Source of the DNA: an uncultured Candidatus Peribacteria bacterium
GTDB taxonomy: Bacteria; Patescibacteriota; Gracilibacteria; BD1-5; JAGOOR01
Assembly: GCA_964603225.1 (NCBI GenBank)
Contig: CAZRUI010000001.1
Location: 1-46,932 of the forward strand
Direction: 5' to 3'
DNA length: 46,932 nucleotides
Under the pieces are notes generated by a model. It saw only the letters and a program-made list of their open reading frames with translations. It was not told the DNA's origin and ran no database searches. A program made the position numbers and the translations under genes. Below are positions 3,262-46,838 of the stretch, in pieces (position 1 is the first letter of the stretch; each line of letters opens with the position of its first letter).

Positions 3262-5031
3262 ATGCTGAGAAACGCCCTGCGCCAATGGAACACCGCGGAG
3301 AAGTGGTCGCTCATCCTGCTCGCCGTCACCCTGATCAAAGGAATGACGAACCTGCTCCGGCTGGCCTGGATCTACCTGGCATACCAACCGATCAACTGGG
3401 ACACCATGGTGTACCTGAGCATCGGACGGGGGATCCTGAACGGCCTAAAGCCCTACACCGGCCTCTACGAGATGAAGCCTCCAGGGATTTTTCTCATCTC
3501 CGCACTGAGCCTGGCCGTGACGGATAACGAGGTATTCGGCCTGATCCTGCAATGGGTGACGCACCTCCTGCTACCGCTCCTCTGCGGCTGGACCGCCTGG
3601 AAACTGGCACGGAATGAGGAGAAGCAGGAGCGCGCGCTCATCGTTCTCACCGCTCTCGCGTTCGGCCTGATCATCTCATTGTACGCGGAGTACCGTGGCA
3701 TGGCGTTCCAGTCAGAGGGGTTTGGGTTCTTCTTTGCGCTCCTCTACGTACTGGCCATCGCCCAGCGCGGGCGCATGACCGCCTTGAGTACCATCATCGC
3801 CGTGATAGGGATCGTCGGCTCCGTGGGCATGAAGGAACCGTTCCTCCTGTCCGCTGCTGCGAGCGCGCTCGTACTGCGTGATGCGGATAAGCCGTTCTGG
3901 CGCACGTTCGGCGTTCCCGCTGCCGCAGCTGTCGTCATGGGGTTCATCCTGCTGGTGGTCCTGGGTTATACGGACGGATACCTGACGGTCCACCTGCCAT
4001 TCATCTTTTCCTCCCGCTTGGCGGAGGGCGTGCCGCTCCCTGTGCGCGGTATGGCGATCGGCCACGTCCTGATGGACACCGCCATCCCGCCCCTCCCCCT
4101 GTTCAGCCTCTTCATTGGCTTCCTGTTCTACCGCTTCCTGCGGGGTCCCGACCGATCTGCCAGGGACGACCGTCGCCTGCTGGCCAGCTTTGCGGCGAGC
4201 GTGATCCTCAGCACGCTCCTGTGGTTCACACTGGAAGGCGCGGAACTAGTCACACGCCTGGAGTGGACTAACGTCAACATCATTCGCCATAGCGTGCGCG
4301 GCGCGCTGGGGATCACACAGGAGTGGACAATGTGGAAATGGACCGTCGTGGTCCTCCTCATCCTAGGCTTCATGGGAACGCTCCGTGCCTCCCCCCGCGG
4401 CTCCCGCCCAGTCCTGCTCCGCCTACTTGGCGCCTTGTACCTGGTAACACTGGCAGTGGCCCTGGGCGGGTTCTTCGGCTCGCACATGCTGTTCGCTCTG
4501 CCGCTATACTGCGCCTTGTTCTTCCACTTCCTAGCGCACCTGCCTGCAAACCGCCAAGCCAGCGGTGCGCTATTCCCTTGCGGGCTGCTCTTACTGGGGA
4601 CCGTGCTGTTCTCCTTTCAAGCCGATCACGAACGTATCTTGCGGTCGGAGGAGCAGTACAACGCGCGGGTCAATGCCATCCTCGCCGAGCACTTTGATGA
4701 CATCATGCGCGACTGCACAATCAAACGGTACTTCATCGTAGGCGACGCCGCACTTCTTTCTGCCCACACGCACTACTCGCCCATCGGCCCGCTCGTCTTC
4801 CAACTGCCCTTCATGGCCGACGATCATCCGATGCTCATGGACTACTACCAGCGCGGCCTGGACACCGCTCAGCTCGCCGTGGTCACGGCCGGTGCCCGCA
4901 ACCGCGACCTTATGCTCTACCTTCTGCAGGAATCCGGCTTCACAGCTGCGGTACCCCCCTGCGCTCAGCCCTATCCCGAGCCCCTAGGCCGGTATATGCT
5001 GTACTTCCGCCTCCCGGCCGTCACCCCGTAG
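3262..5031 (+). CDS. Polytopic membrane glycosyltransferase, ArnT/PMT_2-like (GT-C) (putative)
   Basis: 589 aa, multi-pass. N-terminal region INWDTMVYLSIGRGILNG..YEMKPPGIF resembles the ArnT/GT39-83 loop motif. Soluble C-terminal domain. TAGCGT sits 6 nt upstream of the ATG. Confidence 0.65.
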   Translation: MLRNALRQWNTAEKWSLILLAVTLIKGMTNLLRLAWIYLAYQPINWDTMVYLSIGRGILNGLKPYTGLYEMKPPGIFLISALSLAVTDNEVFGLILQWVTHLLLPLLCGWTAWKLARNEEKQERALIVLTALAFGLIISLYAEYRGMAFQSEGFGFFFALLYVLAIAQRGRMTALSTIIAVIGIVGSVGMKEPFLLSAAASALVLRDADKPFWRTFGVPAAAAVVMGFILLVVLGYTDGYLTVHLPFIFSSRLAEGVPLPVRGMAIGHVLMDTAIPPLPLFSLFIGFLFYRFLRGPDRSARDDRRLLASFAASVILSTLLWFTLEGAELVTRLEWTNVNIIRHSVRGALGITQEWTMWKWTVVVLLILGFMGTLRASPRGSRPVLLRLLGALYLVTLAVALGGFFGSHMLFALPLYCALFFHFLAHLPANRQASGALFPCGLLLLGTVLFSFQADHERILRSEEQYNARVNAILAEHFDDIMRDCTIKRYFIVGDAALLSAHTHYSPIGPLVFQLPFMADDHPMLMDYYQRGLDTAQLAVVTAGARNRDLMLYLLQESGFTAAVPPCAQPYPEPLGRYMLYFRLPAVTP

Positions 5032-7818: not shown

Positions 7819-7936
7819 CCAAGGGTGAAAAAGGCGACAAGGGCGGAAGTGAAAAAAGGAAAGGCAAACCGTTGTCACCCTTTCGACCCCTTTCACCCTT
7901 TTTACCTTTTTAGCCCTTTCGATCCTTTTTACCTTC
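7819..7936. repeat. Imperfect inverted repeat built from AAAGGG/CCCTTT-type 9-10 nt tandem units
   Basis: Left arm 7821-7865 (aagggtgaaaaaggcgacaagggcgg..), right arm 7877-7935 (accctttcgacccctttcaccctttttacc..). Fills the spacer between the stop at 7939 and the gmd -10 box. Confidence 0.7.
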
Positions 7937-38761: not shown

Positions 38762-38767
38762 AGGATA
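38762..38767 (-). promoter_or_regulatory. -10 box TATCCT, 6 nt upstream of GTG 38755
   Basis: Reverse complement of aggata. Abuts the hairpin arm. Confidence 0.5.
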
Positions 38768-38855
38768 CAGAGGACTCAGAGGATCCAGAAGACTCAGAAG
38801 AACGCTGTGCCACATCCGCTGAGTCCTCTGCGTCTTCTGAGTCCCCTGAGTCTTA
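38768..38855. repeat. Hairpin with arms of tandem 9-mers (CAGAGGACT type)
   Basis: Left arm cagaggact cagaggatc cagaagact cagaag. Right arm ctgagtcct ctgcgtctt ctgagtccc ctgagtctt. About 24/30 complementary by eye; 18-nt loop. Confidence 0.8.
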
Positions 38856-39965
38856 TCGGGCGAAGCCCTTCAGAAACTCCGCATACTGCCTGATCAGTGT
38901 CTTCCGCTCAAACCGCTCCAGGATCTTCCGCGCCGCCTGGCCCAGGCGCTCCTGGACGGCAGTATCCGTAAGCAACCGGCTGATCTGCCGCGACAGGTCA
39001 CGGACCGAGCCGTCTGTGAACACGCCATTCTCCCTGTCACGGATCACCTCCGGCATCGCGCCCACGCGCGTGGCAATGACGGGCAGACCTAAGGCCATCG
39101 CCTCCAGCGCGCTGCGCGGACCGCCCTCGCTCCTGGAGTTCATCACAAAGATCCGCCCGCTCTGCATCGCATGTACCAGCTGCCGCTGATCAGGCAACCA
39201 GCCGGCGAACGCCACGCGGTCGGCCATCCCTCTCGTTTGTACGCGCCTCTGCAGGCGCGTCTTGAGCGGCCCGTCGCCGATCAGGAGCAGGCGCACGCCG
39301 GGGAGCGCGCCCACCGCGTCGATCAGCTCCAAAAGCCCCTTATTGGCCACCAGCCGCGCCGCAGTGACCACGTCGTACGCCTTTGCGACGGCTGCGTCCG
39401 GCTTCAGGGCACCTGCATCCAGGTAGAACGAAGGAACGAGGCGGAGCTTCTCCCCCGGTACGCCCCAGGCAACCAGCAGGTCCATCACCGACCGGCTCAC
39501 CACCCGCACGCCGCAGGCCCGCCGCGCCGCCCAGGGCAGGTAGAGGCGGGACATCAGGCGACCAGCGCGCTCCGCGAGCGACGCCGCCGTGGGCGCACCC
39601 ACCACGTGGTGCACTTCCAGGACGTACGGGATACCGGACACGCGGTGGAGCTTCCTTGCCCCCAGTCCATTGAAGAACGGCGGGTACTCATGGACGGTCA
39701 TCACGTCATGATGATGGTCGGCGATCAGCTGCGCCCCCTTCTCCGTAATCCATCTCTTCTGCCACGCGAGCGGCCATGGGGAGGGGTGGAACCACACATT
39801 CTCAAATTCCGACGTCTGACCACTAACCACTGGCCACTGGCCACTCCTTGGACAGATCACATCCACCCGCTCCCAATGCGTATGGAACTCTTCCAGGGTG
39901 TGCCAGAACGCCCCCCGCTTCCCCGCCAGGATGGAACGGTCGCCGGAGATCATCAAAAGCTTCAC
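38853..39965 (-). CDS. Glycosyltransferase family 1 (GT4-type)
   Basis: ORF track 38853..40025. Start moved to GTG 39965 (VKLLMISGD), with CATAAT 6 nt upstream. Motif NSRSEGGPRSALEAMALGLPVIAT. Contains the in-frame heptamer array at 39816..39845 (SGQWPVVSGQ). Confidence 0.8.
   Translation of the reverse strand: MKLLMISGDRSILAGKRGAFWHTLEEFHTHWERVDVICPRSGQWPVVSGQTSEFENVWFHPSPWPLAWQKRWITEKGAQLIADHHHDVMTVHEYPPFFNGLGARKLHRVSGIPYVLEVHHVVGAPTAASLAERAGRLMSRLYLPWAARRACGVRVVSRSVMDLLVAWGVPGEKLRLVPSFYLDAGALKPDAAVAKAYDVVTAARLVANKGLLELIDAVGALPGVRLLLIGDGPLKTRLQRRVQTRGMADRVAFAGWLPDQRQLVHAMQSGRIFVMNSRSEGGPRSALEAMALGLPVIATRVGAMPEVIRDRENGVFTDGSVRDLSRQISRLLTDTAVQERLGQAARKILERFERKTLIRQYAEFLKGFAR
39816..39845. 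repeat. CCACT-heptamer array embedded in frame in a GT4 CDS
   Basis: ctgaccact aaccact ggccact ggccact. Translated on the minus strand as SGQWPVVSGQ. Confidence 0.75.
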
Positions 39966-39970
39966 AGCTG

Positions 39971-40046
39971 AATTATGAATGAGGAATGATGAATCATGAA
40001 GGCCAGCCGCCGCATACTTCCTCATTCACGATTCCTGATTCTTAGG
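39971..40046. repeat. Hairpin with arms of tandem heptamers (GAATGAG/GAATCAT type)
   Basis: Left arm aattatg aatgagg aatgatg aatcatg aagg. Right arm cttcctcattcacgattcctgattcttagg. The right arm encodes the last codons of 40026..41237; the left arm contains the -10 of 38853..39965. Confidence 0.8.
39972..39977 (-). promoter_or_regulatory. -10 box CATAAT, 6 nt upstream of GTG 39965
   Basis: Reverse complement of attatg. Lies inside the hairpin arm. Confidence 0.5.
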
Positions 40047-41237
40047 AGCGGCAACTCCTTCAGCTAGCCCCTCAAACAGCTCCATCCACTCATCCGCCAC
40101 CTGCTCCCAGCTGCGCGCGGGGAGAGGCGCGGACGCAGCCTCCGCTGCTTCCGCATAGGATTGTTCCAGCTCCAGCACCGCCCGGGCAATGTCCTCCGCC
40201 TCCCGCAGGGGCGCAAGGACCATGCCCGCCGTGAGCTCCGGAGAGAGGCCCGTCTCCTCCGTGAGGAGGACCGGCATGCCCGCCGCGCGCGCCTCCAAGG
40301 CCGCATTGGGGCTGATCTCCGTGAGGGACGGAATGACCAGCGCGTCATGGTCCCGGAATACCGCCGCCTTCTCCGTAGGCCCCCTGGATGCCTGGAAGCT
40401 CACGCGATCGATGATCATGAGCGCTTGCGCCTCCTGCTTGAGCTGTTTCAAGAGCGGCCCCTCTCCCACAACCGACAGCCGCACGTGCGGCAGCCGCGCC
40501 ACGGCCCGGAGCAGGGCGGAGAGGTTCTTGAACCCCACCAGCCGCCCGAACCACAGGAGCCGCACCGGCCGCTCTTTGAGCTCTGCTGCTCGCGCGGCGT
40601 ACGGCACGTCCGCCGGCAAATTGAGGGAGGGGAACGCGTTCTGGATCACCAGATGCCGCCGGATATCCGGGTACGCCAAGCGGTAGAGGTGCTCCTGGAA
40701 CGCCGTGGTGAAGGCGATGGCATGGAACCTGGGGAGGAGCGGCTGGAGGAACACGCGGTTGAGCCGCCGCGTGAGGCGGTAGGCGAGCGCGTCCTGCACC
40801 GTGCCGCTCGCGGAAACCGGCCGCGACCGGTACCACTCCCGGAGCGTCCGCTTGCCACCCATCCCCGTGTACCGCTCCCAGAAGTAATCCCCGCCCACGC
40901 GCAGCACCCGGTACGGCTTCTTCAGTTTGGCCATTCTGAGCGGCATGCCCACGGAGACGGAGGAGAACGCCAGCACCACGTCCGCGTCCGCCGCGTACCG
41001 GCGCAATACCCCCGCGTACCGCCGCCAACGCACCACCGGCCCGCCCGCGCGGGACACCCGCACCACCGGCATGCCGCCGCTCTCATCCCGCGCCACTCCG
41101 CCCTTCACCTCCTTGGCGAACGTGATGACCGTCACATCCTGTCCCCGCCGCAGGAGCTCCTTGCCCAGCGCATCCACGTACGTAGCCGGACCGCCGATCT
41201 CCGGAAGAGCGATGCCGGTAGCGAGGATAATCTTCAT
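40026..41237 (-). CDS. Glycosyltransferase family 1 (GT4-type)
   Basis: 403 aa, starts MKIILATGIALPEIGGPATY. Motif PSLTEISPNAALEARAAGMPVL. ATGA overlap with the upstream four-helix-bundle gene. The last 7 codons are encoded by the hairpin arm. Confidence 0.85.
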   Translation of the reverse strand: MKIILATGIALPEIGGPATYVDALGKELLRRGQDVTVITFAKEVKGGVARDESGGMPVVRVSRAGGPVVRWRRYAGVLRRYAADADVVLAFSSVSVGMPLRMAKLKKPYRVLRVGGDYFWERYTGMGGKRTLREWYRSRPVSASGTVQDALAYRLTRRLNRVFLQPLLPRFHAIAFTTAFQEHLYRLAYPDIRRHLVIQNAFPSLNLPADVPYAARAAELKERPVRLLWFGRLVGFKNLSALLRAVARLPHVRLSVVGEGPLLKQLKQEAQALMIIDRVSFQASRGPTEKAAVFRDHDALVIPSLTEISPNAALEARAAGMPVLLTEETGLSPELTAGMVLAPLREAEDIARAVLELEQSYAEAAEAASAPLPARSWEQVADEWMELFEGLAEGVAAPKNQES

Positions 41238-41623
41238 GAGATGTGGGACTTGAGTGATGAGACTTGAGTGAGAAGCTTGCTGTGAAAACTGTGCAGCATA
41301 CGGCTCAACCCATCAATGGATTCCAGGATGCACGGAGCGCGATCTTCAGTTATTCGACCAAGTTCCCTAGCGATGATCACCTGAGTTTCCAGTTCGGCCA
41401 GAGACCCACGGGCAATAAGGAGAAAATTTGCGAATTCTTTAACCGTACTACGCTGGCTACCTTCAGCGATATTCGATGGCACAGAAACAGCAGCTCGACG
41501 CATCTGGGAAGTTAAGCCATAGAGCTCTGTCTTGGGAAACTCTTCTGTGCACTCATAGATCATCTTCACAATCTCAATGCTTTTCTGCCAAATCTTTAGC
41601 TTTTTATAAGACATGCCAATCAT
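41234..41623 (-). CDS. Four-helix-bundle protein (23S rRNA intervening-sequence protein / Avd-like family)
   Basis: 129 aa. Motifs YKKLKIWQKS, LTSQMRRAAVSVPSNIAEG, FANFLLIARGSLAELETQ. TACTAT sits 6 nt upstream of ATG 41623. About 46% GC by hand count over 41281..41640, against GC-rich neighbours. Confidence 0.85.
   Translation of the reverse strand: MIGMSYKKLKIWQKSIEIVKMIYECTEEFPKTELYGLTSQMRRAAVSVPSNIAEGSQRSTVKEFANFLLIARGSLAELETQVIIARELGRITEDRAPCILESIDGLSRMLHSFHSKLLTQVSSLKSHIS
41238..41275. repeat. Left terminal inverted repeat (ACTTGAG/TGATGAG heptamers) flanking the four-helix-bundle ORF
   Basis: Segment 41247-41275 (gacttgagtgatgagacttgagtgagaag) matches the reverse complement of 41637-41667 at 22/29 positions (hand alignment). 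Confidence 0.75.
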
Positions 41624-41636: not shown

Positions 41637-41667
41637 TACTCATGTCTCAAGTCTCATATCTCAAATC
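41637..41667. repeat. Right terminal inverted repeat flanking the four-helix-bundle ORF
   Basis: Sequence tactcat gtctcaa gtctcat atctcaa atc. Overlaps the rfbB stop codon (41661-41663). Confidence 0.75.
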
Positions 41668-42599
41668 TTCTTCGTATACCAGTCAACCGTCCGCTCGATC
41701 CCCTCCTCAAACGCCACCCTGGGTTCCCAGCCGAGCGAGCGGATGAGGCTTGAATCCACGCGGTAGGCCCAGTCATGACCTGGACGATCCGGGACGAATT
41801 CGATCAGGCTCTCCGGTTTCCCCAGGATCCGGAGTACCGTCCTGGCGACTTCAATATTCTCTCTCTCCTGGTCGGGACCGATCAGGTACACCCAGCCGTC
41901 TTCGCCTTTCTCCCGCACCAGCTCCACCGCGTCGGTGTGGTCCGTCACGTACAGCCAATCCCGCTTCTGTTTGCCCTGCCCGTAGAGGGGAATATTCCCG
42001 TTTGCGAGCGCGTTCCGGATGATCACCGGGATGAGCTTGGTCTTGTCCTGGTGCGGACCGTAGTTGTTGGTACAGCGGGTGATGCGGATTTTGAGGTCAT
42101 ACGTGCGGCGCGCGGCCAGGAGCATCAGATCGCCCGCCGCCTTGGTGGCCGCATAGGGATTGGACGGCCGCAGGGGTGACTCCAGGTTGAACGCCGGCTC
42201 GTCATCCTGCACGTCGCCGTAGACCTCGTCGGTGGAGACGTGGACGAGCAGGATTGCCGGGTGGGCTTTGAGGATCTCCATGAGGCTCTGCACGCCCACG
42301 ATGTTCGCATGGAGGAACGGCAGCGCGTTCTCAATCGACCGGTCCACGTGCGTCTCCGCGGCAAAATTCACGATCTGCTCAATGCCGTACCGCGTGACCA
42401 GCTGCTCCAGGAGCTCCACATCCGCAATGTCCCCCTGGATGAACCGGATCCGGTTAATGACGGAGTCCAGAAGACTCTTGTCCGCCGCGTAGTTCAGGCT
42501 GTCCAAAACGATGACCGTGTCGTCCGGATACCGGTCGATATGCCGCAGGACGTAGTGGGAACCGATGAAGCCCGCTCCTCCGGTTACTAAGATGGTCAT
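41661..42599 (-). CDS. rfbB: dTDP-glucose 4,6-dehydratase
   Basis: ORF track 41661..43124. Start moved to ATG 42599 (MTILVTGGAGFIGSH), with TATCCT 6 nt upstream. Motifs YAATKAAGD (YxxxK) and CTNNYGPHQ. Confidence 0.92.
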   Translation of the reverse strand: MTILVTGGAGFIGSHYVLRHIDRYPDDTVIVLDSLNYAADKSLLDSVINRIRFIQGDIADVELLEQLVTRYGIEQIVNFAAETHVDRSIENALPFLHANIVGVQSLMEILKAHPAILLVHVSTDEVYGDVQDDEPAFNLESPLRPSNPYAATKAAGDLMLLAARRTYDLKIRITRCTNNYGPHQDKTKLIPVIIRNALANGNIPLYGQGKQKRDWLYVTDHTDAVELVREKGEDGWVYLIGPDQERENIEVARTVLRILGKPESLIEFVPDRPGHDWAYRVDSSLIRSLGWEPRVAFEEGIERTVDWYTKKI

Positions 42600-42617: not shown

Positions 42618-42705
42618 CGATTGAATGTGGAATATCGAATGTCGAATTTCGAGTAAGAATGGTTGGCTGATCGATATTCCATATTCGACATTCGGTATTC
42701 GAACC
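42618..42705. repeat. Hairpin with arms of tandem heptamers (TCGAATG/GGAATAT type)
   Basis: Left arm cgattgaatgtggaatatcgaatgtcgaatttcga. Right arm gatcgatattccatattcgacattcggtattcgaacc. About 23/33 complementary. Lies between the divergent rfbB and rfbA -10 boxes. Confidence 0.8.
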
Positions 42706-42743: not shown

Positions 42744-43493
42744 ATGAAGGGCGTCCTCATCTGCGGCGGTACCGGCTCGCGCCTGCGGCCGCTCACGGAG
42801 ATCACCAATAAGAGCCTCCTGCCGGTCTACGACCGGCCACTCATCGATTACCCGCTGCAGGTGCTCCTCCGCGCGGGCATTGCGGACATCATCGTCATTA
42901 CGGGGCCGGAACACATGGACCAGATCGCCGCGTTCCTGGGTTCCGGAGAGAAGTTCGGCTGCACGTTCGCCTTCCGGGTGCAGGAGAAGCCGGGCGGTAT
43001 TGCGCAAGCACTGGGGCTGGCGGAGGAGTTTGTGGCCGGGGACATCCTCTGCGCGATCCTGGGGGACAACGTCTACTTGGATGACCTCTCTCCGGCCATC
43101 AAAGCGTTCGAACACGGGGCGCATGTGTTCCTAAAGGAAGTGCCGGATCCGGAGCGCTTTGGCGTTGCCGAGGTCCGGTCGTCACTGACCACCGACCACT
43201 CGCCACTGACCACTGTGGTATCGATCGAGGAAAAACCCTCCGTCCCCAGATCGAACCTGGCCGTCACTGGCTGCTACCTCTACGATGCCCGGTGTTTTGA
43301 CTTCATCCGCACGCAGGAACCCTCCCCCCGGGGCGAGCTGGAGATCACGGACGTGAGCCGCCGCTACCTGGAACTGGGCGAACTCCAGGCGTCCGTGCTG
43401 ACGGACGAATGGATCGATGCCGGAACGTTCGAGAGCCTCTACCGCGCGGCGACCGTGGTGCGGGAGCGGCGCCTCTCCGCTGCCGAGTCATGA
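42744..43493 (+). CDS. rfbA: Glucose-1-phosphate thymidylyltransferase (short-form sugar nucleotidyltransferase)
   Basis: ORF track 42663..43493. Start moved to ATG 42744 (MKGVLICGGTGSRLRPLT), with TACAAT 8 nt upstream. Motifs NKSLLPVYDRPLIDYPL and SIEEKP. In-frame heptamer array at 43181..43215 (SSLTTDHSPLTT). Confidence 0.88.
   Translation: MKGVLICGGTGSRLRPLTEITNKSLLPVYDRPLIDYPLQVLLRAGIADIIVITGPEHMDQIAAFLGSGEKFGCTFAFRVQEKPGGIAQALGLAEEFVAGDILCAILGDNVYLDDLSPAIKAFEHGAHVFLKEVPDPERFGVAEVRSSLTTDHSPLTTVVSIEEKPSVPRSNLAVTGCYLYDARCFDFIRTQEPSPRGELEITDVSRRYLELGELQASVLTDEWIDAGTFESLYRAATVVRERRLSAAES
43181..43215. repeat. CCACT-heptamer array embedded in frame in rfbA
   Basis: gtcact gaccacc gaccact cgccact gaccact g. 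Translated on the plus strand as SSLTTDHSPLTT, between the conserved FGVAE and SIEEKP. Confidence 0.75.
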
Positions 43494-43981
43494 CAACAGT
43501 GCTGCACGCCGGGTTGGAGGAACTTGTCGCGCGAGCCGAAGCCGAAGGCCGCACGCTGGTGGTAGGCGCGGGGATCCAGCACGCAGGCCGCCTGCTCCTG
43601 GTCCGCCGCGCAACTACGGAAAATTTTCTGGCTGAGTACTGGGAAGTCCCCGGCGGCAAGGTAGACCAAGACGAATCGATCTTAGATGCGCTCGTACGGG
43701 AAGTCCGCGAGGAGACAGCCCTGGAGATCAGAGACATTCGTGACTGCGTCGGCATGTTCGATTACGACCTTCCGGAAGGCCTCTTCTGCCAGTTCACGTT
43801 CCTGGTGGACGTGACGCACCCTCACCTCACCCTCAATCCCGCGGAGCACGACGCGCGTCGGTGGATCCATCCGAGCGAGCGGCCGACGCTCGATACCCTG
43901 CGCCTTACGCCCCAGATGCGCGCTATGCTAGCAGTCCTGTTCCACCGGATGGAGGGTCAGGCCACCAGCATCTCCGCGTAG
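43490..43981 (+). CDS. NUDIX hydrolase
   Basis: ORF track 43409..43981. ATG 43490 forms an ATGA overlap with the rfbA stop. Nudix box GGKVDQDESILDALVREVREETAL. Confidence 0.85.
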   Translation: MTTVLHAGLEELVARAEAEGRTLVVGAGIQHAGRLLLVRRATTENFLAEYWEVPGGKVDQDESILDALVREVREETALEIRDIRDCVGMFDYDLPEGLFCQFTFLVDVTHPHLTLNPAEHDARRWIHPSERPTLDTLRLTPQMRAMLAVLFHRMEGQATSISA

Positions 43982-45114
43982 ACCTGGCCGTACCGGGCCG
44001 CTATGGCGGACCAGTCGTAGTGCTGAGCATGTTGGCGACCGGCCTCAGCGGCCTGTTCGCGGAGTTTCGGGTTCTGGAGATACACTTGAATCGCCTCCGC
44101 CGCTGCGGCCGGATCATCTGGCGCAACTAGCGTCCCCGCCGCTTTGGGCACGATCTCCGGGATACCCTGGACAGTTGTAGCCACCACCGCGCAGCCCGCT
44201 GCCTGCGCTTCCAGGAAGACGTTCCCAAACGCCTCCGATCGCGACAGCCCGCAGAAGACCTCCGCCTCTGCGAACTCCCGCAGGAGATCTAGACCCGTGA
44301 GGTACCCCCGGAACGTCACGTGCCGATCGACCCCCAGTTCCCGGGCCAGCTGCTGGAGCTGTTTCCTGAGCGAACCATCGCCCACGATGTGCAGATGTGG
44401 AGCGATGAGCGATGAGCGGGTAGCGGTGAGCTTGGCTGCTCCTTGTTTCCGCCCGCCGCTCACAGCTCTCCGTTCGCGCTGACCACTGACCGCTGACCAC
44501 TGACCGCTCACTATCGCGAACGTTCGCAGAAGAACATCCACCCCCTTCATCGGCTCCAGACGGCCAACGAACAGCACCCGCTCCGGCACCTTGTCCCATT
44601 GACCGCACACCTCACGGGTGGCGTCCAGCGGGATACCGTTGGGGATGAGAGTCACGTCCGTACGGCCCAATGACGCGGCCCGGTCGATCAAGACCTGGCT
44701 AATAGCGGTGAGGCGGTGCGGGGCGCGGTGGATGGGACCGAGCAGGAAGGAAGTGTTCGTGCTCTGGAGCGTGAGGAGCCGCCGGGCATCCGGCACCAGC
44801 ATGCGCGCACACAGGAGCGCCACTCCGGCGTAGGATTCCAGCACGGCATGGAGGAGCGCGGGCCGCAGCCGCCTAGCGGTCCAGGCACTGAGGAGCGGGA
44901 AGAGCCACTTGTCGATCGGGAGGCCCAGGCCCACCCGGACAACGCTCACGCCCAGGAGGTCATCCTGCCGGGGCAAGCGGAGCCGCATGCGCGCCGTGAT
45001 GATCACCACGTCATAAGAGGCCGCAAGCCGCACCGCCACCTCCTCCGCGCACGCCTCCGCCCCGCTCCGCAGGGGGGAGAGGAACGCGGAGAGGACAACG
45101 ACACGCTGTTTCAC
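43957..45114 (-). CDS. Glycosyltransferase family 1 (GT4-type) carrying a translated hairpin-repeat insertion
   Basis: ORF track 43957..45168. GTG 45114 (VKQRVVVLSAF) preferred; ATG 45168 possible. Motif SRSEAFGNVFLEAQAAGCAVVAT. About 36 extra residues (SGQWSAVSGQ...TRSSLIA) lie just before the conserved HIVGDG. Confidence 0.8.
   Translation of the reverse strand: MKQRVVVLSAFLSPLRSGAEACAEEVAVRLAASYDVVIITARMRLRLPRQDDLLGVSVVRVGLGLPIDKWLFPLLSAWTARRLRPALLHAVLESYAGVALLCARMLVPDARRLLTLQSTNTSFLLGPIHRAPHRLTAISQVLIDRAASLGRTDVTLIPNGIPLDATREVCGQWDKVPERVLFVGRLEPMKGVDVLLRTFAIVSGQWSAVSGQRERRAVSGGRKQGAAKLTATRSSLIAPHLHIVGDGSLRKQLQQLARELGVDRHVTFRGYLTGLDLLREFAEAEVFCGLSRSEAFGNVFLEAQAAGCAVVATTVQGIPEIVPKAAGTLVAPDDPAAAAEAIQVYLQNPKLREQAAEAGRQHAQHYDWSAIAARYGQVYAEMLVA
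44400..44511. repeat. Complete two-armed GGTCAGT-family hairpin element embedded in frame in a GT4 CDS
   Basis: Arm 44400-44431 (gagcgatgagcgatgagcgggtagcggtgagc) matches the reverse complement of 44478-44509 at 23/32 positions (hand alignment). The right arm contains a perfect 14-nt tandem duplication (gctgaccactgacc x2). Confidence 0.75.
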
Positions 45115-45119
45115 AGTAC

Positions 45120-45198
45120 GGAATGGAAAATTGAAAATGGACAACGCACAATGACCGTCATTGTACATTGTAAATTGCCCATTCTACATTTCCCATTC
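45120..45198. repeat. Hairpin with arms of tandem heptamers (GAATGGA/AAATTGA type) plus a central perfect palindrome
   Basis: Left arm ggaatggaaaattgaaaatggacaa. Centre acaatga-ccg-tcattgt (45148-45164). Right arm ttgcccattctacatttcccattc. Confidence 0.8.
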
Positions 45199-46315
45199 AC
45201 GCGCTCTGCGACATCAATGCAAACAAATCTTGGTACTGCTTCCCCACCGCCTCCCAGCTGAAGTGCTCCTGGATCCGCTGCCGCGCCGCCTGCCCCATGG
45301 CCCGCCGCTTGGCGGGGTCCTCAAGCAACCGGCGAACGTGCGCCGCCAGGGCTTCTCGGTCCCCGGGCGGGAAGAGGAGCCCGGAGACGCCGTTCTGGAG
45401 GAGGAACCGGTTCCCGCCCACGTCGGTTGCTATGCACGCGCAGCCGCTCGCCATGGCTTCCATGAGGGCGTTACTGAGCCCCTCGCTGTGGCTGGGAAGA
45501 ACAAAGATGTCCGTCCCGGCCAGTACCGCCGGAATGTCGTCCCGCAAGCCGGTGAACGCCACGTCCCGCTCGTACCGCCGCACGAGCGGGTGGCCGTCCC
45601 GGTACCAACCAACTACTTGCAGCTTGAGGCGGGAATGGCTCTTTTTGAGCGGCACAACCGCTTCAAGGAAGTCATCGACGCCCTTGATGGACTCCAGCCG
45701 ACCGACGTATGTGACAGTGATCGCAGCGGAATCTGACCACTGACCACGGACTACCGACCACTGTGCCGGATCGATCCCGGTAGGAATCACTTGGCTCTTC
45801 CCAGCAAGGCCAAGCCGCCTCAGGAGCCGCTCCGGCTGCGGATGGAAGAACACGATTCTGGCAGCGCACAGCAGGATCAACCACCCCAGCGTCCACGCAT
45901 AGATGGCCGCGGCAATTTTGGGCAACCTGCCGCGCGGCCACCACGTCATGCCCACCAGGGCGTCCGTGAGCAGAATCACCCGCCGCCCCCGGAGCGCCAG
46001 GGAGAGGACGGACAGGGACGTCCAGAACAGAATCTTATTTACCACCACGATATCCGGCTGCTCCGACCGGATGAGCGCCCGCACGCGGCGGGAGAAGCCC
46101 CAGGCGATCCCATAGTTCCACGGATCGGGCAGGAAGAAGTCCCGGAAACGGTGAATGGCCAGCGTAGCCGAGACACGCTCTCCCCCCGTCTCCGCCCCCA
46201 TGCAGGCCATGATGACCCGGAAGCCCAGCCGCTGCCACAGTTCCGCCAGTTTCACCGAGCTCACCATCCAGCGGTGCTGCTCCTGCCAGTAGGGGGAGAT
46301 AAGGAGGATCTTCAC
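45197..46315 (-). CDS. Glycosyltransferase family 1 (GT4-type)
   Basis: 372 aa, GTG start (MKILLISPYW). Motif PSHSEGLSNALMEAMASGCACIAT. In-frame heptamer array at 45733..45763 (QWSVVRGQWS). Confidence 0.85.
   Translation of the reverse strand: MKILLISPYWQEQHRWMVSSVKLAELWQRLGFRVIMACMGAETGGERVSATLAIHRFRDFFLPDPWNYGIAWGFSRRVRALIRSEQPDIVVVNKILFWTSLSVLSLALRGRRVILLTDALVGMTWWPRGRLPKIAAAIYAWTLGWLILLCAARIVFFHPQPERLLRRLGLAGKSQVIPTGIDPAQWSVVRGQWSDSAAITVTYVGRLESIKGVDDFLEAVVPLKKSHSRLKLQVVGWYRDGHPLVRRYERDVAFTGLRDDIPAVLAGTDIFVLPSHSEGLSNALMEAMASGCACIATDVGGNRFLLQNGVSGLLFPPGDREALAAHVRRLLEDPAKRRAMGQAARQRIQEHFSWEAVGKQYQDLFALMSQSA
45733..45763. repeat. CCACT-heptamer array embedded in frame in a GT4 CDS
   Basis: ctgaccact gaccacg gactacc gaccact g. 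Translated on the minus strand as QWSVVRGQWS. Confidence 0.7.
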
Positions 46316-46320
46316 GGAGC

Positions 46321-46396
46321 GGTCAGAAGCGAGTGGTCAGTGATCAGTATGAGGAAAAAATCCACACCTGGCCACTGACCCCTGACCACTGATCAC
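46321..46396. repeat. Hairpin with arms of tandem heptamers (GGTCAGT / CCACTGACC family)
   Basis: Left arm ggtcaga agcgagt ggtcagt gatcagt. Right arm ctggccact gacccct gaccact gatcac. About 19/27 complementary. The loop contains a CATACT -10-like box for the minus strand. Confidence 0.8.
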
Positions 46397-46755
46397 TCTT
46401 CTGTGGAACTCTCATCCTGCGCCAAGCCGGCCTCTCTCAGCGCAATTTCCCTGACCAACTTGGCCTGCCGCTCTTCCAGCTCCTCCAACCGGATGACCAG
46501 GTAGAACACCATGAAGAAGAGGATGCCCAGGAACGTCACGACCACCGCGTTTTCCCGGTCGGCAACCCCCGTCAGGGCAGAGAGCGTGGTGAGGAGGTCC
46601 GGCAGGAGCGCAATGAGCGCCACCAATCCCCAGAAGAACGTCCAGAGCAGCGCTTCCCACACCGTCTTCTTGCCCCGCCGCACCAGCCCCCACGCGTACG
46701 CGACCGCGACCAGGGACAGGAGCGGCGCGATGATCTGGTAGGGGGTGAGAGACAT
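46393..46755 (-). CDS. DUF2304-family small membrane protein
   Basis: 120 aa with three or four TM spans, then a charged coiled tail (RLEELEERQAKLVREIA). This type usually sits next to a GT2 gene. Confidence 0.7.
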   Translation of the reverse strand: MSLTPYQIIAPLLSLVAVAYAWGLVRRGKKTVWEALLWTFFWGLVALIALLPDLLTTLSALTGVADRENAVVVTFLGILFFMVFYLVIRLEELEERQAKLVREIALREAGLAQDESSTEE

Positions 46756-46758
46756 GAC

Positions 46759-46838
46759 GCGAATGTTGAATAGCGAATGGCGAATGTGGAATACCGATGG
46801 GGTTCGACATTCGACATTCTATAGTCGATATTCGATCC
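46759..46838. repeat. Hairpin with arms of tandem heptamers (GCGAATG type; same family as 42618..42705)
   Basis: Left arm gcgaatg ttgaata gcgaatg gcgaatg tggaata ccg. Right arm ggttcgacattcgacattctatagtcgatattcgatcc. Shares cgaatgtcgaa and gaatatcga strings with 42618..42705. Confidence 0.8.

Follow-up and report, generated by a model that had tools for sequence, protein, structure and literature searches.

Is a glycosyltransferase gene that contains a translated DNA hairpin with tandem-repeat arms switched by this hairpin, inactivated by it, or simply tolerant of it? The question is raised by a window of 46,932 nucleotides, the whole stretch analysed here (positions 1 to 46,932 of contig CAZRUI010000001.1, assembly GCA_964603225.1, from an uncultured Candidatus Peribacteria bacterium, a member of the candidate phyla radiation or CPR), in which a GT4-family (GT-B fold) gene on the minus strand (43957..45114, GTG start at 45114, stop at 43957, 385 residues) contains such a hairpin. 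A first-pass annotation had noticed the hairpin and, within it, a perfect 14-nt tandem duplication, and had offered two readings: an ON/OFF slip site comparable to those of Neisseria pgl genes, or a mobile-element insertion that the gene either tolerates or has been inactivated by. The analysis reported below leads me to consider it likely that the segment, of about 110 nt, is an old, tolerated, in-frame and translated heptamer-array hairpin within a functional GT4 gene, and not an expression switch.

The module is in frame, lies within a surface loop of the enzyme, and has arms that consist of 7-nt tandem repeats. As first annotated, the arm at 44400-44431 matches the reverse complement of 44478-44509 at 23 of 32 positions around a 46-nt spacer. 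This pairing is the best inverted repeat within 44300-44600, and none of 300 dinucleotide-preserving shuffles reached 23 matches (mean best 18.1, maximum 22). The perfect 14-nt unit, CGCTGACCACTGAC, is also real, being found by Tandem Repeats Finder (TRF) in 2.3 copies at 44477-44508 with 100% matches, but TRF describes the same stretch equally with a period of 7 (3.9 copies, 90% matches). The apparent 14-mer duplication is therefore a four-unit heptamer array in which two variants of one heptamer, CTGACCA and CTGACCG, alternate. Read on the minus strand, which is that of the mRNA, the 5' arm (44478..44509) is (GGTCAGY)x4, equivalent to CTGACCR x4 on the plus strand, and is translated SGQWSAVSGQ; the spacer or "loop" (44432..44477) is unique sequence translated RERRAVSGGRKQGAAK; and the 3' arm (44400..44431) is a heptamer array of the (CTCAYCG) type, GAGCGRT on the plus strand, which is translated LTATRSSLIA and corresponds to the 5' arm's complement in a variant free of stops. 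A stretch of the spacer, 44449-44475, could pair instead with the other arm, to which it has 70% complementarity.

At the protein level, the segment between "FA" and "LHIVGDG" comprises 40 residues (201-240, window 44395-44514). Counted from KG in the GRLEPMKG motif up to the LHIVGDG strand, most of 139 orthologs have 15-20 residues and the window protein has 49, an excess of about 30 residues rather than the 36 or so initially counted; the same loop measures at least 25 residues in 35 of the 139 and at least 30 residues in 17 of them. In the C-terminal Rossmann domain, the insert falls where the chain passes from the first helix to the second strand. Rossmann folds place their helix-to-strand connections at the edge opposite the ligand site, and since this is a general rule of their topology, the insert loop would lie away from the active site and the nucleotide site.

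The rest of the protein bears the marks of an intact enzyme. It matches Glycos_transf_1 (PF00534, 2e-33, 115.7 bits for a curated Pfam cut-off of 26.4) and Glyco_transf_4 (PF13439, 34.5 bits, curated cut-off 28.5), its homologs are GT4 enzymes of Candidatus Peregrinibacteria/Peribacteraceae, mostly of 350-360 residues, and it keeps all 46 columns that are invariant in an alignment of 120 homologs, including the E-x7-E motif (E294, E302). Modelling the enzyme with its insert had been suggested in the first-pass annotation; AlphaFold2 predicts an intact GT-B fold of two Rossmann domains (mean pLDDT 94.4, pTM 0.91), with uncertainty confined to residues 201-240, where successive blocks of the insert have pLDDT values of 84/66/58/76 and are modelled as a helix at 206-217 and coil from 218 on. 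The model superposes in Foldseek on MshA, BshA, PimA and sucrose-phosphate synthase (SPS) with TM scores of 0.75-0.81. A single open reading frame holds the motifs of both domains in each of the 77 orthologs tested. Automatic calls lengthen the protein to 403 residues (start 45168) by reading across the hairpin of the upstream spacer; the starts of the orthologs coincide with the GTG at 45114, and the longer form probably results from a mis-called start.

The age of the insert was assessed in the closest relatives, P0002 (locus L004) and P0003 (locus L005), which are 66-69% identical, have a conserved gene order and carry an insert at the same place. In a DNA alignment the insert edges are common to the window, L004 and L005, while the units have drifted: at the left edge the window reads GAGCGGTCAGTGGTCAGC where L004 reads GAGCGGTCAAGGGTCAGC, and in the right arm the window has CTCATCG units, L004 has CTCATGT and L005 shows decayed units. 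In L004 the arrays consist of other units and the hairpin has been lost (z -0.8); L005 has no clear array and a weak hairpin (z -0.5); the GT4 frame is open in all three. Judged from these alignments, the insert predates the split from relatives that are now 66-69% identical. This bears directly on the proposal that the insertion inactivated the gene and left a pseudogene that has yet to decay, a proposal that draws on the foreign look of a 110-nt hairpin in the middle of the C-terminal domain and on the uncertainty of AlphaFold2 at that very place. Inactivation is nonetheless extremely unlikely, because the frame is open, the invariant residues of the 120 homologs are all kept, the GT-B fold is predicted with confidence, and the insert is older than the split, with all three genes still intact; in addition, the mismatches between the arms take away stop codons. 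Of the mobile-insertion reading, tolerance thus stands and inactivation falls. The sequence comparisons and the structural model support a functional host enzyme with a long-tolerated insert, and annotation should describe the gene as an intact glycosyltransferase that starts at 45114 and has a loop derived from repeats, neither as a pseudogene nor as a phase-variable gene. At 3780-3860 of L004, a hairpin made of GAGCGAT/TAGCGGG arrays lies at the (overlapping) junction of the called DUF2304 and GT4 genes; its unit type is that of the 3' arm of the insert.

The proposal of a phase-variable contingency locus holds that slipped-strand mispairing adds or removes one unit of 7 or 14 nt, turning the glycosyltransferase ON and OFF and thereby varying the surface glycan. 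Its arithmetic is sound: the unit is not a multiple of 3, the array lies within the open reading frame, and a tract that is 7 or 14 nt longer or shorter leaves the C-terminal domain truncated or scrambled, whereas a change of 21 nt keeps the frame. In this respect the tract resembles the phase-variable repeats of Neisseria pglA/pglE and the heptanucleotide tracts of Haemophilus influenzae hmw promoters (PMC4235727), where a unit that is not a multiple of 3 lies, for pgl, in a glycosyltransferase open reading frame and a change of one unit shifts the frame. Arrays of the same unit occur in four genes of one glycan cluster, in which array density peaks. Long units can be mutable at few copies, at least three GACGA units being listed as hypermutable (PMC4235727, Table 1), a calibration made on pentamers and not on 7- or 14-nt units such as the 3.9 heptamers at 90% or 2.3 perfect 14-mers found here. 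By contrast with the Neisseria and H. influenzae tracts, however, this one is short, with four imperfect units and no length polymorphism found, is not conserved in relatives and belongs to a genome-wide class of repeats scattered in genes and spacers. Contigs from SRR8893624, SRR8893623 and DRR736439 are 100% identical to the window over 2.7-4.7 kb and cross the tract unbroken, so that the tract is the same in three other assemblies. JGI metagenome contigs, among which the organism is absent, gave 0 hits when scanned for the flanks of the tract with a gap of 15-45 nt. In a database of 5.8 billion proteins, the cluster of the GT4 protein has one member, and no high-identity truncated or variant relative was found among the hits. 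The tract therefore has a constant length at the assembly level, and its repeat is not kept in the relatives that share the insert: L005, and in part L004, are orthologs with the insert but without the repeat at the DNA level, a situation that the first-pass annotation had itself named as telling against a switch. The arrays at large behave similarly. Between strain pairs about 140 substitutions apart over about 48 kb, no copy-number change was seen in any of the roughly 24 arrays that they share, and multiples of 7 are not enriched among the indels, of 5 nt or longer, that separate close relatives (6 of 29). Arrays are, moreover, equally common in spacers and in a nucleotidyltransferase gene, and both domains are encoded in one open reading frame in every one of the 77 orthologs mentioned above. 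A switch of the Neisseria pgl kind is consequently not supported, and I regard it as very unlikely.

The extent of the repeat class was established by counting arrays of at least three copies in two sets of Peribacteria DNA, the first consisting of 82 loci around the orthologous gene together with the window (731 kb) and the second of 80 independent metagenome loci (821 kb), about 1.5 Mb in all. The first set contains 182 arrays of period 7, against 33 of period 6, 38 of period 8 and 50 of period 9; the corresponding numbers in the second set are 185, against 26, 59 and 53. As many as 165 distinct heptamer units occur in the first set. An inverted partner within 130 nt (15/18 matches or better) accompanies 84 of 211 arrays (~40%) as against 13 in the control, and 96 of the 211 lie in frames that extend 60 codons or more without a stop on each side. 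The density of arrays is highest in the glycan cluster, yet they are present throughout the flanks (10 kb on each side), which rules out their confinement to the cluster. Peribacteria DNA is characterised throughout the lineage by heptamer arrays, some standing singly and others paired into hairpins. Literature searches on repeats and hairpins of Peregrinibacteria or Peribacter found no description of them; the repeats mentioned in the Peribacter genome paper are origin-proximal short repeats and one direct repeat region.

How can such arrays be accommodated within genes? Every CTGACCR unit contains TGA, so that three units of a pure array oriented in this way are enough to close all three frames, just as forward TAACTGA repeats put stops in all frames (MacGregor, PMC4679880). 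Stops number 4, 2 and 2 in the three plus-strand frames of the module, against 0 in the sense frame. The 3' arm deviates from a perfect complement of the 5' arm at nine positions, and the five truly pair-breaking mismatches all fall on four would-be TGAs. A similar pattern is seen in the array of the RmlA-like gene, which stands in the stop-prone orientation with its in-frame TGAs mutated (CTGACCA CCGACCA CTCGCCA CTGACCA); the arrays of the window that lie inside genes are either read from the GGTCAG strand or have mutated TGAs. The patterns of arrays and arms would thus be the footprint of selection for an open frame.

The loop that holds the insert is one of the positions at which arrays recur among orthologs. 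Besides the window, 12 of the 139 orthologs have a period-7 array at this loop, and most have no insert there at all. Other heptamer arrays occupy it in L013, where the array encodes a loop of normal length, and in L048, L069, L072, L073, L105 and L164, and it is the site of unrelated strong hairpins in L083 (z -9.5), L070 (z -5.1) and L055 (z -3.1). Of 99 orthologs of the neighbouring GT4, 29 have a strong period-7 array at its linker (xPTGID...VTVTYVGRL), compared with 0-1 for each of the periods 5, 6, 8 and 9; the units vary by species (for example L017 3421-3448, L025 3373-3400, L033 2983-3043, L062 3444-3473 and L086 2475-2506). Recurrence with differing units is also found at a loop of the RmlA-like protein and at two other positions. 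Two further observations concern these sites. Pro-rich/Gly-rich translated palindromes stand at the linker of the neighbouring GT4 in many further orthologs. In the loop of the GT4 ortholog of L069 (~4620-4720), an extra GC-rich hairpin of 48 nt splits a heptamer array midway while keeping the frame (GCGATAAGCGG / 48 nt / CAAGCGG); it is absent from L098, which is 94-95% identical to L069, a clean presence/absence event of a small hairpin within an array.

A mechanism that would account for the tolerated hairpin can be outlined from these sequence patterns. Two short arrays of 7-nt repeats, inverted with respect to each other around a unique spacer, would have been inserted in frame long ago into a dispensable helix-strand connection of the C-terminal Rossmann domain. 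Arrays would last only where they do little harm, in intergenic spacers and permissive protein loops, and inside genes only the stop-free orientation or a stop-free variant would survive. The array probably grew, and is probably homogenised, by replication slippage, although dispersal may also have contributed to its origin, and the extra peptide would be neutral.

Several observations weigh against this account. The recurrence of arrays with different units at the same positions lies outside it. The insertion of a discrete unit is itself conjectural: blastn-short found no second copy of the 46-nt spacer or of the whole module in the window and the 82 loci, where the arrays alone recur, and neither terminal inverted repeats nor a target-site duplication were identified, no clear duplication being visible by eye at the edges. 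The identity of the tract among assemblies is an identity of consensus sequences, which is compatible with minority length variants. Avoidance of stops alone does not fully explain the divergence of the arms; only one of the four removed TGAs would fall in the present frame, and the other four arm differences are transitions that all keep G-U pairs on the mRNA strand, an outcome with a chance of about 1 in 16. As a result of these transitions, the mRNA strand forms 23 Watson-Crick and 4 G-U pairs out of 32 and the plus strand 23 and 1; the sense-strand RNA of the module accordingly folds at -52 kcal/mol with a z of -2.8, clearly beyond chance, which points to a possible role at the RNA level. 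The plus-strand fold is no better than that of shuffled sequences (z -0.5). A DNA cruciform on the plus strand alone was also considered and lacks energetic support, given this same value.

The folding of the sense strand raises the possibility that the hairpin is kept for a function, as an mRNA structure (acting on stability, processing or the pacing of translation, like REP/BIME elements), as a flexible basic protein linker, or as heptamers that bind a factor. Such a function would be in keeping with the excess of sense-strand folding and with the retained G-U pairs just described, and also with the presence of a hairpin in nearly every spacer of the same-strand cluster, often a few nucleotides upstream of a start codon, a position for which MacGregor proposed a translational role of TAACTGA repeats (PMC4679880). 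Class-wide, arrays persist at the same loops, as at the linker of the neighbouring GT4 with its 29 orthologs in 99. Retention of the hairpin is, however, not what the relatives display: it has been lost in L004 and is weak in L005, both of which share the insert, most orthologs do without an insert at this loop, and the encoded peptides are wholly different between species. Nor do the hairpins of the window show a consistent preference for the transcribed strand, their preferences being mixed, and an Rfam scan of the whole window returned zero families at the gathering threshold. On balance, I give a selected function only a small chance of being the correct explanation.

The recurrence at fixed positions admits a further hypothesis. 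One unit fills five slots of the window, as opposed to other units in the orthologous slots of other species, and this pattern suggests, as far as sequences can tell, dispersal or homogenisation within a genome. It is conceivable, if doubtful, that Peribacteria keep dedicated "array slots" at orthologous loops and gene junctions of the envelope glycan cluster, and that some active process, by spreading one heptamer unit through a genome, refills these slots or makes them uniform. Were this true, CPR bacteria would have a novel form of repeat mobility or gene conversion, and rare frameshift variants might diversify the surface glycan at the population level. The single locus, read as a tolerated translated hairpin, becomes ordinary once its repeat family is seen.

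The best reading of the element in terms of known systems is that it is closest to the Rickettsia palindromic elements (RPE) in behaviour, and to the heptamer repeats of cyanobacteria and Beggiatoa in sequence and periodicity. RPEs are described as inserting in frame into many genes, with which they are translated (Ogata et al. 2000, as reviewed in PMC10969869). The element studied here is likewise a palindrome of the ~100-150-nt class, in frame in unrelated metabolic genes, tolerated by the fold, hosted by a functional gene and retained across species. It differs in that RPEs are sequence families with a conserved peptide, whereas here the architecture and the 7-nt unit recur, with a unique spacer and arms that are tandem arrays; furthermore, the host is a CPR bacterium, and any mobility would be putative here. 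The features expected of RPEs or of MITEs (miniature transposable elements with inverted repeats) are accordingly found for the palindrome, the in-frame insertion and the preserved fold; a multi-copy family with a conserved full-length sequence was not found in the window and the 82 loci, and a classical multi-copy MITE is rejected on present data. REP/BIME/REPIN elements and other MITEs (PMC3116915, PMC10969869) are also short hairpin repeats that fill operon spacers and are dispersed in the genome, but the hairpins described here have no conserved REP-like consensus, their arms are periodic arrays, and terminal inverted repeats or target-site duplications were not seen.

The likeness to known heptamer repeats is closer at the level of sequence. 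Heptanucleotide repeats are reported to be the most abundant long simple-sequence repeats in repeat-rich genomes, an excess for which a polymerase contact of 7 nt is a proposed cause (both from Mrazek 2007, as cited in PMC4679880). The short tandemly repeated repetitive (STRR) repeats of cyanobacteria and the TAACTGA direct repeats of Beggiatoaceae, Cyanobacteria and Bacteroidetes (PMC4679880) share with the present arrays the period of 7, the 2-6 copies per set and the excess of that period; TAACTGA sets also stand immediately upstream of start codons, and one orientation stops all frames so that the reverse alone survives inside open reading frames (PMC4679880). The unit CCACTGA/CCGCTGA is two bases away from TAACTGA, and the respective peptides are WSVVSGQ and LSVISYQ. 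By contrast, ~40% of the arrays are inverted-paired here, compared with one indirect repeat in 170 sets in the Beggiatoa genome (PMC4679880), nearly half of the arrays lie in long open frames, there are many units per lineage, and arrays recur at orthologous loops. A peptide query of the type (SGQRSAV/SGQWSAV)n retrieved 61 short open reading frames (P0121-P0181) from Moorena, Pseudoalteromonas, Streptomyces, Thioalkalivibrio and others, dozens of which are "hypothetical proteins" of 45-79 residues that consist of translated GGTCAGY arrays and nothing else. For some of them, precomputed Pfam annotation lists hits to PF21300, the grass antifreeze beta-roll (ice-binding) domain, and the three that were re-scanned all fell below the curated cut-off. 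Annotators should therefore be aware that many short "hypothetical proteins" and sub-cut-off hits to ice-binding domains are translated arrays. Borg tandem repeats (PMC9879509) offer another parallel, being fast-evolving repeats within open reading frames that add low-complexity, probably disordered segments; they are, however, direct repeats of archaeal extrachromosomal elements, whereas the unit here is of 7 nt, takes three copies to keep the frame and is often hairpin-paired. The arrays differ from known heptamer repeats in their frequent pairing into hairpins, the large in-gene fraction, the recurrence at orthologous loops and the CPR host. Heptanucleotide repeats have so far been known mainly from intergenic spacers of cyanobacteria and large sulfur bacteria and now prove abundant in a CPR lineage. 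Peribacteria, with their genomes of ~1.2 Mb, offer a compact system for studying how repeats arise and spread and how proteins absorb them, and revive the question posed by RPEs.

The GT4 gene belongs to a long same-strand cluster for cell-envelope glycans that comprises six GT4-type genes, one GT2, RmlA-like, RmlB-like, NUDIX and DUF2304 genes, and the remainder of the window likewise codes for glycan-related enzymes. The window contains 16 period-7 arrays, all within 37.5-46.9 kb. The unit GGTCAGY (CTGACCR) fills five places, namely the GT4 insert, three further genes and a spacer. The neighbouring GT4 (45197..46315) has the array in its interdomain linker (45733..45763, minus strand), where it is translated AQWSVVRGQWS; in the RmlA-like nucleotidyltransferase gene it is at 43183..43215 (plus strand) and is translated SLTTDHSPLTT; and in another GT4 gene (38853..~39965) it is at 39816..39845 (minus strand) and is translated SGQWPVVSGQ. 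The spacer in question separates the DUF2304 gene from the neighbouring GT4 and contains a hairpin (46328..46397) both arms of which are GGTCAGT/CTGACCA arrays, one of them at 46368-97, with an RNA fold z of about -4 on both strands.

This intergenic hairpin is one of seven modules whose arms are periodic arrays (one of them of period 9), six being located in intergenic spacers and the seventh being the GT4 insert. An AT-rich heptamer-array hairpin (45122..45198; -40.2 kcal/mol and z -8.7 on the minus strand) fills the spacer immediately upstream of the start codon of the GT4 gene, another (GAATATC / GATATTC, arms matching at 23/28, 42623..42702) lies between the divergent RmlB-like and RmlA-like genes, a third (46759..46836) is immediately upstream of the start codon of the DUF2304 gene, and a fourth (TGAATGA, 39969..40046) occupies the spacer separating two GT4 genes. 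Start codons follow several of the spacer hairpins at a distance of a few bases. The module at 38762..38854, in the spacer separating two glycosyltransferase genes, has the same architecture with a different period, 9/18, and a z of -7 to -9.

In the middle of the glycan cluster, at 41234-41623 on the minus strand, lies a gene for a 129-residue 23S rRNA-intervening-sequence protein (PF05635, with a weak bAvd-like match in addition). It stands in a stretch of low GC content (56% GC at 41-42 kb), and a heptamer array (41639-41668) is found upstream of its start codon. The first 37 kb of the window, which contain GT2, GT4, GT9, methyltransferase, asparagine synthase, carbamoyltransferase and UDP-GlcNAc 2-epimerase genes, are essentially free of period-7 arrays and may constitute a region of different origin. 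A period-9/18 array (ACCCTTTTT) is present at 7875-7933, with an architecture like that of the module at 38762-38854 and a period unlike that of the heptamers.

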